A stretch of 44,989 nt of DNA from a virus (IMGVR_UViG_2872703611_000005), one strand, 5' to 3'; positions 11,340 to 43,943 are shown, counted from the stretch's first letter. Program-made: numbers and translations. The notes: generated from the sequence alone by a model not told the origin.

Positions 11340-11533
11340 ATCTTAGTTAAGTAGAATGACTGTGGGTGCTTGAGGCTATCTGTCTCAGGCATGAACACCA
11401 AAAGGCAGATAGAGAAAAGCCCCAGTTAACATTACGCGTCCTGCAAGACGCTTAACATTAATCTGAGGCTCAATCCATGCTGAACACATGTAGGTTAGCC
11501 TCTTACGTGCCGAAAGGCAAGGAGAAGCAGGCT
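11340..11533. promoter_or_regulatory. hok leader region, expected to carry the mok-like upstream frame and antisense Sok RNA
   Basis: Long leader upstream of hok with an in-frame upstream ATG at 11477; architecture typical of hok/sok loci; sok boundaries not determined. Confidence 0.4.
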
Positions 11534-11689
11534 ATGAAGCAGCAAAAGGCGATGTTAATCGCCCTTATCGTCATCTGTTTAACCGTCATAGTGACGGCAC
11601 TGGTAACGAGGAAAGACCTCTGCGAGGTACGAATCCGAACCGGCCAGACGGAGGTCGCTGTCTTCACAGCTTACGAACCTGAGGAGTAA
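11534..11689 (+). CDS. hok: Hok/Gef family type I toxin
   Basis: 51 aa MKQQKAMLIALIVICLTVIVTALVTRKDLCEVRIRTGQTEVAVFTAYEPEE, matches my recollection of E. coli HokD/RelF. Confidence 0.9.
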   Translation: MKQQKAMLIALIVICLTVIVTALVTRKDLCEVRIRTGQTEVAVFTAYEPEE

Positions 11690-15561: not shown

Positions 15562-15684
15562 ATGCCTGAAAAACGGCACAGAACATTAAACGCGCTGGTA
15601 GTTGTGAATACTGGTCTTTCAGCTTGCTGGCTTTTTGGACAAGAGTTATTGGTATGTCACGTTAACCGGAAAAGGGAAAAAGGC

Positions 15685-17131: not shown

Positions 17132-17207
17132 GGCCCTTTAGCTCAGTGGTGAGAGCGAGCGACTCATAATCGCCAGGTCGCTGGTTCAAATCCAGCAAGG
17201 GCCACCA
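17132..17207 (+). tRNA. tRNA with CAU anticodon (Ile2/Met type)
   Basis: Hand-folded cloverleaf; GGCCCTT/AAGGGCC acceptor, anticodon loop CTCATAA, GGTTCAAATCC T-arm, 3' CCA encoded. Confidence 0.8.
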
Positions 17208-17214
17208 TCACATA

Positions 17215-17291
17215 CCGCCATTAGCTCATCAGGATAGAGCGCCAGCCTTCGAAGCTGGTTGCGCGGGGTTCGAGTCCTCGATGGCGGTCCA
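17215..17291 (+). tRNA. tRNA-Arg (anticodon UCG)
   Basis: Hand-folded cloverleaf; anticodon loop CTTCGAA, T-arm GGTTCGAGTCC, 3' CCA; exact 5' end approximate. Confidence 0.7.
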
Positions 17292-17304
17292 TTATCTGTA
17301 CCCT

Positions 17305-17381
17305 GCGTTGTTAGCTCAGCCGGACAGAGCAATTGCCTTCTAAGCAATCGGTCACTGGTTCGAATCCAGTACAACGCGCCA
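17305..17381 (+). tRNA. tRNA-Arg (anticodon UCU)
   Basis: Hand-folded cloverleaf; GCGTTGT/ACAACGC acceptor, anticodon loop CTTCTAA, T-arm GGTTCGAATCC, 3' CCA. Confidence 0.8.
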
Positions 17382-17557
17382 CGCTTATTTTTCCAGGCTC
17401 GCTTCGGCGGGCCTTTTTCATATCCGCGCCACGCCCGGCGCACATCAAAAAACCACAGAGCCTTTCAGGGGTGAGCTTACGGGATGGTCAGTGTGACTTT
17501 CTCTGTGGGCTGGTCACCCCCCGGGCGCAGGCTCACCCACTAAAAGGAAAAGTCACG

Positions 17558-17983
17558 ATGTTTGGTATTTTCAAAAAGAAAACCCGCAAGGCCATTACCG
17601 AAGTGAAGAAGATGGAGAACCGTGACGCAGTGGAGGCGACCGTCTGGGGCGCGTACTCCATTGCATACGCTGACGGCACCTGTGACGCGAAAGAAATCGC
17701 GGTACTGGAAAAAACCATTGCAGCACTTCCTGCCTTTGCGCCGTTCTCCGGTGAGATTGCACAAATGAGTGCAAATATCCGCGCCCGTTATGAAGCGTCG
17801 CCGCGTTCTGCCAATGCCGAAGCTCTTCGTCAGCTGGCTGATGTTGCCGGTACTGATGATGCAGTTAATGTGCTGTGCCTGTGTCTGGATATCGCTGACC
17901 AGGACGGTATCGCTCAGGAAGAAGAAGCGCAACTGAAGAAAATTGCGCAGGCGCTGCAGTTGCCGCTGGAGCAGTACCTGTGA
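17558..17983 (+). CDS. TerB-like domain protein (tellurite-resistance TerB / DjlA N-terminal-like)
   Basis: 141 aa from ATG with AAAAGGAAAAG RBS; two repeats of the AxADGxxDxxE / DxDGIAQEEE pattern; family call from motif recollection only. Confidence 0.5.
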   Translation: MFGIFKKKTRKAITEVKKMENRDAVEATVWGAYSIAYADGTCDAKEIAVLEKTIAALPAFAPFSGEIAQMSANIRARYEASPRSANAEALRQLADVAGTDDAVNVLCLCLDIADQDGIAQEEEAQLKKIAQALQLPLEQYL

Positions 17984-18132
17984 AAAGTGCGCGCCTTGTG
18001 CTGGCTGTCATCCTGTTGTTTCTGGTAGTGGTGGTTGATTTCACCGGACGACTGATGTCAGTGCTGACAGATGGTGTGCTGGTGGCGATGGCGCTGGTCG
18101 TGCTCCGGCCTTTACTGCGTAAATCTGAATAA
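17980..18132 (+). CDS. Putative small hydrophobic membrane peptide overlapping TerB-like stop
   Basis: 50 codons from GTG overlapping the preceding TGA; strongly hydrophobic (LAVILLFLVVVVDF...VLVAMALVVL); speculative. Confidence 0.3.
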   Translation: MKSARLVLAVILLFLVVVVDFTGRLMSVLTDGVLVAMALVVLRPLLRKSE

Positions 18133-18218
18133 CATCACACAAAAGGCATCTGCGGATGCCTTTGACGGGGTGTTTTTTACGGGTCGCTGGTGGCCCTTTT
18201 TTATTTTCAGGAGGAAGT

Positions 18219-18611
18219 ATGTCTGAACCCTTATCCGGTTCCGGCACGGCTGCGGCGCTGGGGGGCGCGACGGTATTCGGGCTGTTTACCGGGATGGATT
18301 TCGGGATTGTGTTTGGCGCGTTCGCCGGGGCGTTATTTGTGGCAACAATGCCACAGTCACTTTCAGTCTGGCGCGTGGTGGCACATTTTCTGGTGTCGTT
18401 TATTGTCGGCGTGCTGGGAGCGCGTGTGCTGTCAGCCTGGATTGCATCAAAAACAGGGTATGACGCTACATCAGCAGATGCGCTTTGCGCGGTGCTGGTC
18501 TCGGTGGTGTCGGTGAAGATTCTCTCGTTCATCCACCAGCAGGATATTGCATCGCTGGTGTCCGGTGTGTTCTCCCGCCTGCGGGGTGGAGGAGGCGGCA
18601 ATGTTAAGTAA
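18219..18611 (+). CDS. Putative holin-like membrane protein
   Basis: 130 aa from ATG with AGGAGG RBS; Gly/Ala-rich TM segments; first gene of the lysis cassette. Confidence 0.5.
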   Translation: MSEPLSGSGTAAALGGATVFGLFTGMDFGIVFGAFAGALFVATMPQSLSVWRVVAHFLVSFIVGVLGARVLSAWIASKTGYDATSADALCAVLVSVVSVKILSFIHQQDIASLVSGVFSRLRGGGGGNVK

Positions 18612-18876
18612 CCTTCCCGGATTGCTGAATGTGGCGTTATGCACGGTTATCGTGCTGACGCTCTTTTTTTATCGTCGCCGTGATTCCAGACATAAACCGC
18701 TGGTGTCATGGCTGGCCTGGCTGCTGATGCTGCTGTATGCCTTTGCGCCCCTCAGCTATCTGTGTGGTCGCCCGTTAGCAACGGGCTGGCTGGAAGTGTT
18801 TTTTAACCTGCTGTTCTGCGTGCTGGTGATACGCGCACGCGGGAACGTCACAAAAATCTTTCCATTGTTGAGGTGA
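18601..18876 (+). CDS. Second membrane protein of the lysis cassette (holin/antiholin-like)
   Basis: 91 aa, hydrophobic helices, overlaps neighbours on both sides. Confidence 0.45.
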   Translation: MLSNLPGLLNVALCTVIVLTLFFYRRRDSRHKPLVSWLAWLLMLLYAFAPLSYLCGRPLATGWLEVFFNLLFCVLVIRARGNVTKIFPLLR

Positions 18877-19256
18877 ATATGCCGGGTAAATTCAGATTCA
18901 GCCGTCGCAGTGAAAAAAATCTGGAGGGTGTCAAACCACAGCTGGTTGCTGTAGTTCGCCGTGCGCTGGAGCTGACGGAGGTTGATTTCGGTATTACGGA
19001 AGGCCTGCGCAGTAAGTATCGCCAGAAACAGCTGGTTGCGGAAGGGAAAAGCCAGACCATGAACAGCCGCCACCTGACCGGTGATGCGGTGGATGTTGTG
19101 GCCTACATCGGCAGCCAGGTGTCATGGGAGTGGTCTCTGTACGAGAAAATCGCACAGGCATTTAAGCAGGCTGCCGCAGAGCTGGGGATCGCTATCGAAT
19201 GGGGCGGGGACTGGAAAACGCTGAAAGACGGACCTCACTTTCAGCTGAAGCGATAA
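18873..19256 (+). CDS. Endolysin, peptidase M15 (VanY/L-alanyl-D-glutamate peptidase-like)
   Basis: 127 aa; SRHLTGDAVDV and DGPHFQ match the zinc-ligand motifs of M15 peptidases. Confidence 0.75.
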   Translation: MNMPGKFRFSRRSEKNLEGVKPQLVAVVRRALELTEVDFGITEGLRSKYRQKQLVAEGKSQTMNSRHLTGDAVDVVAYIGSQVSWEWSLYEKIAQAFKQAAAELGIAIEWGGDWKTLKDGPHFQLKR

Positions 19257-43359: not shown

Positions 43360-43943
43360 TGGCATTCAGAATGAGTGAACAAGCACGGACCATAAAAATT
43401 TATAATCTGCTGGCCGGAACTAATGAATTTATTGGTGAAGGTGACGCATATATTCCGCCTCATACAGGTCTGCCAGCAAACAGTACCGATATTGCACCAC
43501 CAGATATTCCTGCTGGCTTTGTGGCTGTTTTCAACAGTGATGAGGCATCGTGGCATCTCGTTGAAGACCATCGGGGTAAAACGGTTTATGACGTAGCGTC
43601 AGGGGACGAGTTATTTATTTCTGAACTCGGTCCGTTACCGGAAAATGTTACCTGGTTATCGCCGGAAGGGGAGTTTCAGAAGTGGAACGGCACAGCCTGG
43701 GTGAAGGATACGGAAGCAGAAAAACTGTTCCGGATCCGGGAGGCGGAAGAAACAAAAAACAACCTGATGCAGGTAGCCAGTGAGCATATTGCGCCGCTTC
43801 AGGATGCTGCAGATCTGGAAATTGCAACGGAGGAAGAAACCTCATTGCTGGAAGCCTGGAAAAAGTATCGGGTGTTGCTGAACCGTGTTGATACATCAAC
43901 TGCACCTGATATTGAGTGGCCTACGAACCCTGTCAGGGAGTAA
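43359..43943 (+). CDS. tfa: Tail fibre assembly protein Tfa
   Basis: 194 aa starting at ATG overlapping the stf stop (TAATG); lambda Tfa-like. Confidence 0.85.
43786..43943 (+). repeat. Direct repeat copy 1 (tfa 3' segment), paired with 44835-44989
   Basis: About 155 nt of close similarity between the 3' end of tfa and the 3' end of the downstream tfa fragment, flanking the methyltransferase gene. Confidence 0.7.

Follow-up and report, generated by a model that had tools for sequence, protein, structure and literature searches.

Which genes take the place of stxAB in the phage sequence IMGVR_UViG_2872703611_000005, and what might they do there? The window, which is the whole 44,989-nt stretch of DNA that was analyzed, carries a gene for a 141-aa protein and an overlapping 50-codon ORF between a tRNA cluster and the lysis genes. 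It is essentially certain that the two are a gene pair of the phage P1 type, tciA and tciB, and their position, proteins, distribution, and probable role are described below.

Position of the gene pair in the window

The element hosting the pair was shown to be a lambdoid Escherichia coli prophage, with tciAB in the segment between Q and the lysis genes. From position 15583 onward, the window is 91–99% identical to the lambdoid prophage located beside yecE in E. coli strain E200086. All the features of the locus are on the plus strand. Genes for a DNA methyltransferase and a Q-type antiterminator (assigned using Pfam and PHROGs) lie 5′ of a cluster of three tRNA genes (ileZ-type CAT, argN TCG, and argO TCT) at 17132–17381, which was identified using ARAGORN and the Rfam tRNA model and is the upstream context that defines the stx-equivalent slot. 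An intrinsic terminator found by a terminator scan (17395–17419; hairpin at 17395–17414, followed by a U-run) precedes a conserved tciA 5′ leader (17415–17557), the structured part of which spans 17461–17547. The tciA gene (17558–17983) encodes 141 aa, starts with ATG, and has an AAGGA ribosome-binding site upstream; tciB (17980–18132) encodes 50 aa and starts with GTG, with GGAG 8 nt upstream. The gap between tciB and the holin gene is only 86 nt long and is filled with hairpins. The first (18142–18163), a conserved hairpin recognized in the sequence right after tciB, forms the right edge of the cassette, and the second, a terminator-like hairpin with a U-run from the terminator scan (18181–18206; hairpin at 18181–18196), lies directly 5′ of the holin gene. 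The lysis genes encode a holin (Phage_holin_8; 18219–18611), a 3TM holin (18601–18876), and an M15 endolysin (18873–19256), all assigned using Pfam and PHROGs.

Two other reading frames were rejected. An upstream-extended ORF of 216 aa, starting from a TTG at 17333, is spurious and runs through the argO tRNA gene. A 186-aa ORF on the minus strand (18041–18601), lying opposite the holin gene and the last part of tciB, is most likely no gene because it is the mirror frame of the GC-rich, hydrophobic holin gene. Elsewhere in the window, matches at the Rfam gathering score were observed for the sok antitoxin RNA of a hok/sok-type module (11364–11539) and, near the right end, for the IS009 RNA element (43702–43900).

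The tRNA cluster is 93% identical at the nucleotide level to ileZ-argN-argO of the Stx2 phage 933W, and equally so to that of about 275 other phage records, mostly those of Stx-converting phages. In the annotation of the 933W record, ileZ-argN-argO is followed by a terminator and then by stxA2/stxB2. The homology between the window and 933W stops at 17430, just past the terminator hairpin, whose homologue is labeled in the 933W record as the terminator preceding stx; 933W then runs into stxA2. From this end of homology and the order of the flanking genes, tciAB was concluded to be in the stx-equivalent position. A reading made earlier from the DNA alone (the sequence-only reading) had assigned the pair to this slot, and the comparison bears it out: tciAB comes after ileZ-argN-argO and the terminator and before the lysis genes, as stxAB does in 933W. 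Both pairs would belong to the Q-dependent late transcript. Their proteins and function are unrelated, and what they have in common is limited to where they are located and how they are probably expressed.

Identity and features of TciA and TciB

TciA matched PHROG 632 over its full length (E-value of 5e-64), and TciB matched Pfam DUF3927 (4e-14) and PHROG 1470, named ‘TciB-like’ (2e-22). TciA is 86% identical to P1 TciA over all 141 aa (80.5% for the genes at the nucleotide level), and TciB is 49% identical to its P1 counterpart at the amino acid level. The P1 peptide has the same DFT...DG core, the P1 genes have the same stop/start overlap, and the pair adjoins an ileX/ileZ-type tRNA(CAT) in P1 as in the window. 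In P1, however, tciA-tciB-tciC are located in the C1-repressed early ban operon, with tRNA genes flanking the three genes, whereas the pair in the window is in the Q-dependent late region; the conserved, structured leader of the window is missing from P1, and tciC is present in P1 and absent from the window. No TciC-like sequence and no second TerB or TciB copy were found across the window, and most of the non-P1 loci likewise lack tciC.

As a gene finding, the pair is nothing new, having been annotated since the P1 genome record, with identical proteins in RefSeq. The exact TciA sequence is already public on 441 contigs and the exact TciB sequence on 258, under the names ‘tellurite/colicin resistance protein’ and ‘DUF3927 family protein’, respectively. 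The sequence-only reading had not recognized the configuration, and here it was mistaken, because tciA/tciB are annotated in P1 and in E. coli prophages of RefSeq; annotations of the pair were also found in P7, Pollock, FSL SP-076, and JLK-2012. Of 5426 complete E. coli genomes, 164 carry at least 80% of the region 17380–18220, and 980 (about 18%) match part of the cassette region. Among the top-scoring E. coli genomes listed, the order in RefSeq is tRNA-Arg, TerB family protein, DUF3927 family protein, and holin. Human isolates account for many of the best matches, and some of these are named ETEC (ETEC6, plus ETEC1749 and ETEC1731 from the leader search). The yecE prophage of E200086 is 99.6% identical over 17380–18220 and has the same flanks, so similar that the window copy is not distinguishable from it. 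In JLK-2012, the genes are annotated as tciA/tciB and come after three tRNAs in the late region. JLK-2012 and PPyecE_EH1910 differ from the window in having a second tciA allele (43% amino acid identity) behind the same leader and in having nanS-p between tciAB and the holin gene.

TciA was shown to be a cytoplasmic, soluble protein with a single TerB-fold domain. It matched the Pfam TerB profile (PF05099) with 32.2 bits against a cut-off of 24.4 (E-value of 1.4e-7), its homologues carry precomputed PF05099 assignments, and a TerB-like all-helical fold covered the whole TciA domain in a fold search. The TerB likeness claimed for the 141-aa protein was thus confirmed by both profile and fold. 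The reading had further described two TerB-like repeats; two ADG-type motifs are indeed present (ADGTCDAKE at aa 38–46 and DQDGIAQEEE at aa 114–123), but they belong to one internally duplicated TerB domain rather than to two domains. In an alignment of TciA relatives down to 29% identity, which includes P7, Pollock, FSL SP-076, the Erwinia jumbo phage, and the Vibrio N4-like phage, the invariant residues are K18, D23, A27, D39, E46, E66, D95, A113, E122, and L126. A metal- or ligand-binding role has been proposed for TerB domains (PMC7824862), and the set of acidic residues in TciA, with D39, E46, and E122 invariant even at the lowest identity, would fit such a role. The N-terminal basic tail (MFGxFKKKxRK) is predicted to be disordered, yet it is conserved across the alignment; it may be read as a putative membrane- or partner-binding motif.

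Three cysteines, C42, C107, and C109 (the ADGxC position and the VLCLC motif), are invariant in the clade of TciA proteins that are at least 75% identical and not deeper, and they may have a metal or redox role specific to this clade. A search with the TciA sequence against PDB chains retrieved no TerB structure and gave chance matches only (PNPase and histone H3). DjlA was rejected as an identity for TciA, as the only NCBIfam match was below the threshold (13.9 bits, with a cut-off of 162). Among the nearest known systems are TerB of the terZABCDE operons for tellurite, colicin, and phage resistance and the TerB-like structures 2h5n and 2ou3. Unlike terB in those operons, tciA stands alone with a gene for a 50-aa peptide, which is found in place of TerC, TerD, TerE, TerZ, and TerA.

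The small overlapping GTG ORF pointed out from the sequence proved to be a real gene, conserved and coding for a membrane peptide. A hydrophobic ORF of 49–55 codons comes after tciA in each of the 18 loci in which the tciA 3′ end is present, and the two genes overlap there by 4 nt (GTGA) or 1 nt (TAATG or TGATG). In the window, the GTG of tciB overlaps the TGA stop codon of tciA as GTGA, and from this overlap tciB is taken to be translationally coupled to tciA. Across the TciB family, whose core sequence is VDFTSRxMSVLADGVLV, D20 is invariant, and R5, F21, S27, D31, and G32 are nearly invariant. The pairwise dN/dS was about 0.28 for tciB and 0.05 for tciA (clade of at least 75% identical TciA), and the tciB frame has stayed open despite a mean pairwise dS of about 1.5. 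The conserved pairing, the invariant residues, and the purifying selection are the evolutionary grounds on which tciB was accepted as a real gene, in addition to its profile matches.

Hydropathy analysis of TciB revealed two hydrophobic segments with DFTGR between them, and each end of the peptide carries basic residues, which suggests an N-in/C-in hairpin topology. The family is small: in a set of 1.84 billion proteins, it makes up 37 clusters at 50% identity, and nearly all the members are 40–90 aa long. TciB is 50–60% identical even where the TerB partner is only 30–33% identical (P7 and Pollock). TciB did not match any holin family in Pfam or PHROGs, where DUF3927 and PHROG 1470 were its only matches, and no similarity to TerC was detectable, with DUF3927 as the sole Pfam match. 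In an AlphaFold model of the natural fusion protein P0060, used to model TciA with TciB and known from one contig as a probable frameshift artefact, the TciB part is helical with low confidence (pLDDT of 50–70), and the pTM of the model fell to 0.65. Three database proteins, P0060 (196 aa), P0275, and P0244, combine TerB with DUF3927 in a single polypeptide. For P0060, an artefact of sequencing or assembly is more probable than a true fusion, because it has an apparent 1-nt frameshift relative to P1 at the tciA/tciB junction and occurs on that single contig.

Genomic settings, expression signals, and the leader RNA

The tciAB pair is a mobile two-gene cassette that was found in four kinds of setting. 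The first is the Q-to-lysis segment of at least 14 lambdoid phages and prophages of Escherichia, Klebsiella, Citrobacter, Enterobacter, and their relatives, as exemplified by the window, vB_Apl-pPE4, PPyecE_EH1910, JLK-2012, Evi, CharmingMan, LMessi, Klebsiella phage 5 LV-2017, and the loci L006–L010, L019, and L020. The second is the ban operon of P1, P7, and P1-like plasmids, with 799 plasmid records, of which 781 are predicted to be non-mobilizable. The third comprises the early regions of P2-like and other temperate elements, in one of which the pair adjoins a Kil gene, and the fourth comprises the early regions of strictly virulent N4-like phages (FSL SP-076 and Pollock) and an Erwinia jumbo phage. 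In every context examined, tciAB is co-oriented with a lytic-cycle operon. The tciABC operon has been lost in about half of one P1-like subgroup (PMC9603915), and tciA, tciB, and tciC of P1 were non-essential in a CRISPRi screen (PMC10695390).

Several observations concern the makeup and neighborhood of the cassette. Two tciA alleles with 43% protein identity share the leader, the first ~20 codons, and the type of tciB (L003 4164–4759 from PPyecE_EH1910, L029 from JLK-2012, and the IMG/VR loci from L037 onward), and recombination breakpoints were therefore placed inside the cassette. The same swap of the tciA allele is seen between P1 and P7, with TciB nearly unchanged. The pair is repeatedly found beside tRNA genes, as in P7, JLK-2012 (Asn/Thr/Gly), and Erwinia phage Caitlin (Trp/Cys), and the tRNA(CAT) gene of the window (17132–17207) is 86% identical to P1 trnI, which comes after tciC; this proximity may reflect either linkage or a shared insertion hot spot. 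In the N4-like Vibrio phage PhiImVa-1 (L026, 1–2180), the genes are arranged as TerB-TerC-TerB with no TciB-like peptide, which suggests that phage TerB proteins have either TerC or TciB as their membrane partner. The phage vB_Apl-pPE4 (L002; PP818812.1), recorded as an ‘Actinobacillus phage’, has 91–94% nucleotide identity to the window prophage over tciAB and the lysis cassette. Such likeness to an E. coli prophage is surprising for a phage of Actinobacillus pleuropneumoniae, and its host label may therefore deserve checking.

The cassette is bordered by transcription signals on both sides. In other loci, compensatory changes preserve the paired stem of the upstream terminator; this terminator (17395–17419) shields the cassette from the tRNA promoter and is the left boundary of the conserved region. 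In the hairpin after tciB (18142–18163), the stem sequence changes with the pairing kept in L007, L008, L009, and L010. Like a moron, the cassette has its own downstream terminator, represented by this hairpin and the terminator-like site at 18181–18196. No sigma-70-like promoter was found on the plus strand between 17415 and 17557 either by eye or by a simple consensus scan, a method whose reach does not extend to weak or non-sigma-70 promoters. The simplest reading is that tciAB would be silent in the lysogen and transcribed from pR′ by the Q-modified polymerase, by analogy with stx2 of 933W. Transcripts of P1 tciA, tciB, and tciC have been measured at 10 and 20 min into lytic infection (10.64898/2025.12.28.696737, preprint), which fits the reading of lytic expression.

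The 143-nt leader between the terminator and the ATG is more conserved than the third-codon positions of tciA. Its identity to the leader of L008 is 0.79, compared with 0.51 for the tciA third-codon positions, and its identity to that of PPyecE_EH1910 is 0.95, compared with 0.59 for the coding sequence. In an 18-mer scan of IMG/VR for the leader, whose search pattern itself fixed part of the 5′ strand, 107 untruncated contigs were retrieved; TciA followed the motif in 104 of these, at a distance of 98–99 nt in nearly all of them, and TciB was also present in 101. The contigs were split about evenly between the two tciA alleles.

From 14 leaders, RNAalifold predicted a stem-loop domain (17461–17547) in which CCUUU at 17461–17465 pairs with the Shine–Dalgarno AAAGG at 17543–17547. 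In the pair counts, 97% of the cells were paired, compared with 46% or below in slid controls, although the structure was derived from the same sequences on which it was tested, and most of its pairs are invariant. Nine pairs in the 14-leader alignment were changed on both sides, compared with 2.2 in shuffles. In an alignment of 74 sequences, the inner pair 17483/17519 covaried strongly, being AT in 44, GC in 25, and GT in 5, with no breaks; one helix position was mismatched in 21 sequences. The search of Rfam with the cassette including the leader returned no family and only chance matches below the threshold, and the pairing of the leader with the tciA ribosome-binding site is possibly a new side observation, not catalogued in Rfam. 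The leader is absent from the P1, P2-like, and N4-like contexts. In the IMG/VR locus L148 (4602–4788), a deletion scar was observed, in which tciAB is lost and the leader is joined to the last tciB codons and the downstream hairpin.

Proposed role in the lytic cycle

The best explanation as a whole, for which we see the chances as evenly balanced, is that tciAB is a cassette of the late lytic phase whose TciA acts at the membrane and protects the infected cell until lysis. The pair would be transcribed only by Q-antiterminated late transcription, so that TciA and TciB would be made in roughly fixed proportion in the last phase of lytic growth. TciA would probably dock at the cytoplasmic face of the inner membrane via TciB, its own basic tail, or both, and could serve there as a cation- or ligand-binding regulator or sensor of a membrane process or property. 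The two proteins may thus form a minimal counterpart of the TerB–TerC core of the ter operon. The most likely benefit would be that the integrity or energization of the membrane of the infected cell is kept until lysis, for example, against superinfecting phages or pore-forming colicins. A TerC–TerB complex has been proposed as the core of ter systems (PMC12054061), and an action against superinfecting phages has been proposed for Ter components that phages carry (PMC7824862); together with the TerB-TerC-TerB arrangement of PhiImVa-1, these proposals are the reason for likening the pair to TerB with a membrane partner. Between tellurite resistance of the lysogen and a membrane-associated role in the late or lytic phase, the latter is the more likely because terminators flank the pair on both sides, no promoter was found in the consensus scan, and the pair is always in lytic-cycle operons, including those of virulent N4-like phages. 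Points against the explanation are the dispensability of P1 tciABC, the loss of the operon in part of the P1-like elements, the negative search of the defence-system models, the low confidence of the fusion model for its TciB part, and the negative result for TerC similarity in TciB.

The module matters because it is very widespread and strongly conserved across temperate lambdoid, P1-like, P2-like, virulent N4-like, and jumbo phages, and experimental handles on it are offered by the acidic residues that are invariant in TciA, by D20 and D31 in TciB, and by the anti-Shine–Dalgarno leader. A more specific proposal, which we put forward tentatively and consider unlikely, is that the leader is a new cis-regulatory RNA gating tciA, and tciB by coupling, through sequestration of the Shine–Dalgarno sequence, and that a minimal Ter-like membrane module is thereby switched on by a late signal, excluding superinfecting phages or stabilizing the membrane until the holin is triggered.

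Among the rival explanations, a role in the timing of lysis was considered, in which TciB would be a miniature antiholin- or holin-like peptide and TciA its cytoplasmic regulator, tuning the triggering of the adjacent holin. The two-segment architecture and short basic C-terminus of TciB resemble those of small holins, and tciAB is directly 5′ of holin genes in the window and at least four relatives and shortly upstream of them in the other Q-to-lysis loci, where the holin families differ (Phage_holin_8 with the 3TM holin, S-type, and PHROG 126). This explanation is nevertheless distinctly improbable, as the pair is far from the lysis genes in the ban operon of P1 and P7 and in the early regions of P2-like and N4-like phages, nanS-p, tRNA, or hypothetical ORFs intervene between tciB and the holin gene in several phages, and none of the holin family profiles matches TciB.

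The slot itself is a classic place for lysogenic-conversion genes such as stx, and TciA and TciB could be such cargo, expressed in the lysogen and conferring tellurite and/or colicin resistance on the host. The TerB homology of TciA and the database names point in this direction, and the ter operon confers resistance to tellurite, colicins, and phages (PMC4319500; PMC9603915). The link of tciAB to tellurite resistance or defence is suggested by homology only, and a literature search for functional tests of tciA, tciB, or DUF3927 yielded annotation-level mentions only, again by homology. No TerC-like sequence was found in the window, no other ter genes were annotated within 20 kb on either side in the near-identical E200086 prophage, and the smallest unit reported to be functional in tellurium resistance of E. 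coli is TerC-TerD (PMC12054061). No matches to TciA or TciB were obtained with the PADLOC(-DB) defence-system models at E-values of up to 0.1. A terminator with compensatory support stands directly upstream of the cassette, no promoter of its own was found in the consensus scan, and the pair is also carried by N4-like and jumbo phages that are strictly virulent and therefore never form a lysogen in need of protection. We therefore regard lysogenic conversion as quite unlikely, and the database name ‘tellurite resistance’ is probably misleading for tciA.

A host-takeover or toxin-like function, in which a membrane-active TciB would arrest division or depolarize the cell and TciA would modulate it, is just as doubtful. 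The reading ‘inhibition of cell division’ behind the name tci was offered by the P1 annotation via homology, tciAB comes right after a gene for a Kil septation inhibitor at one locus, and tight translational coupling is typical of two-component pairs of toxic and antidote genes. Against these points, the reading is an annotation by analogy only, no toxin-family matches were found, the pair is non-essential for P1 plaque formation (PMC10695390), and TciA is far more conserved than TciB (the dN/dS values given above for the clade of at least 75% identical TciA), unlike typical antitoxins.

Finally, that tciAB is a functionless hitchhiker, a mobile cassette kept by recombination hot spots of phages with no benefit to phage or host, is highly improbable despite its frequent loss in P1-like elements, the natural deletion in L148, and the dispensability of P1 tciABC, as tciA is under strong and tciB under clear purifying selection, and conservation of the coupling, the invariant residues, and the leader extends over Escherichia, Klebsiella, Citrobacter, Enterobacter, Erwinia, and Salmonella as well as virulent phages.
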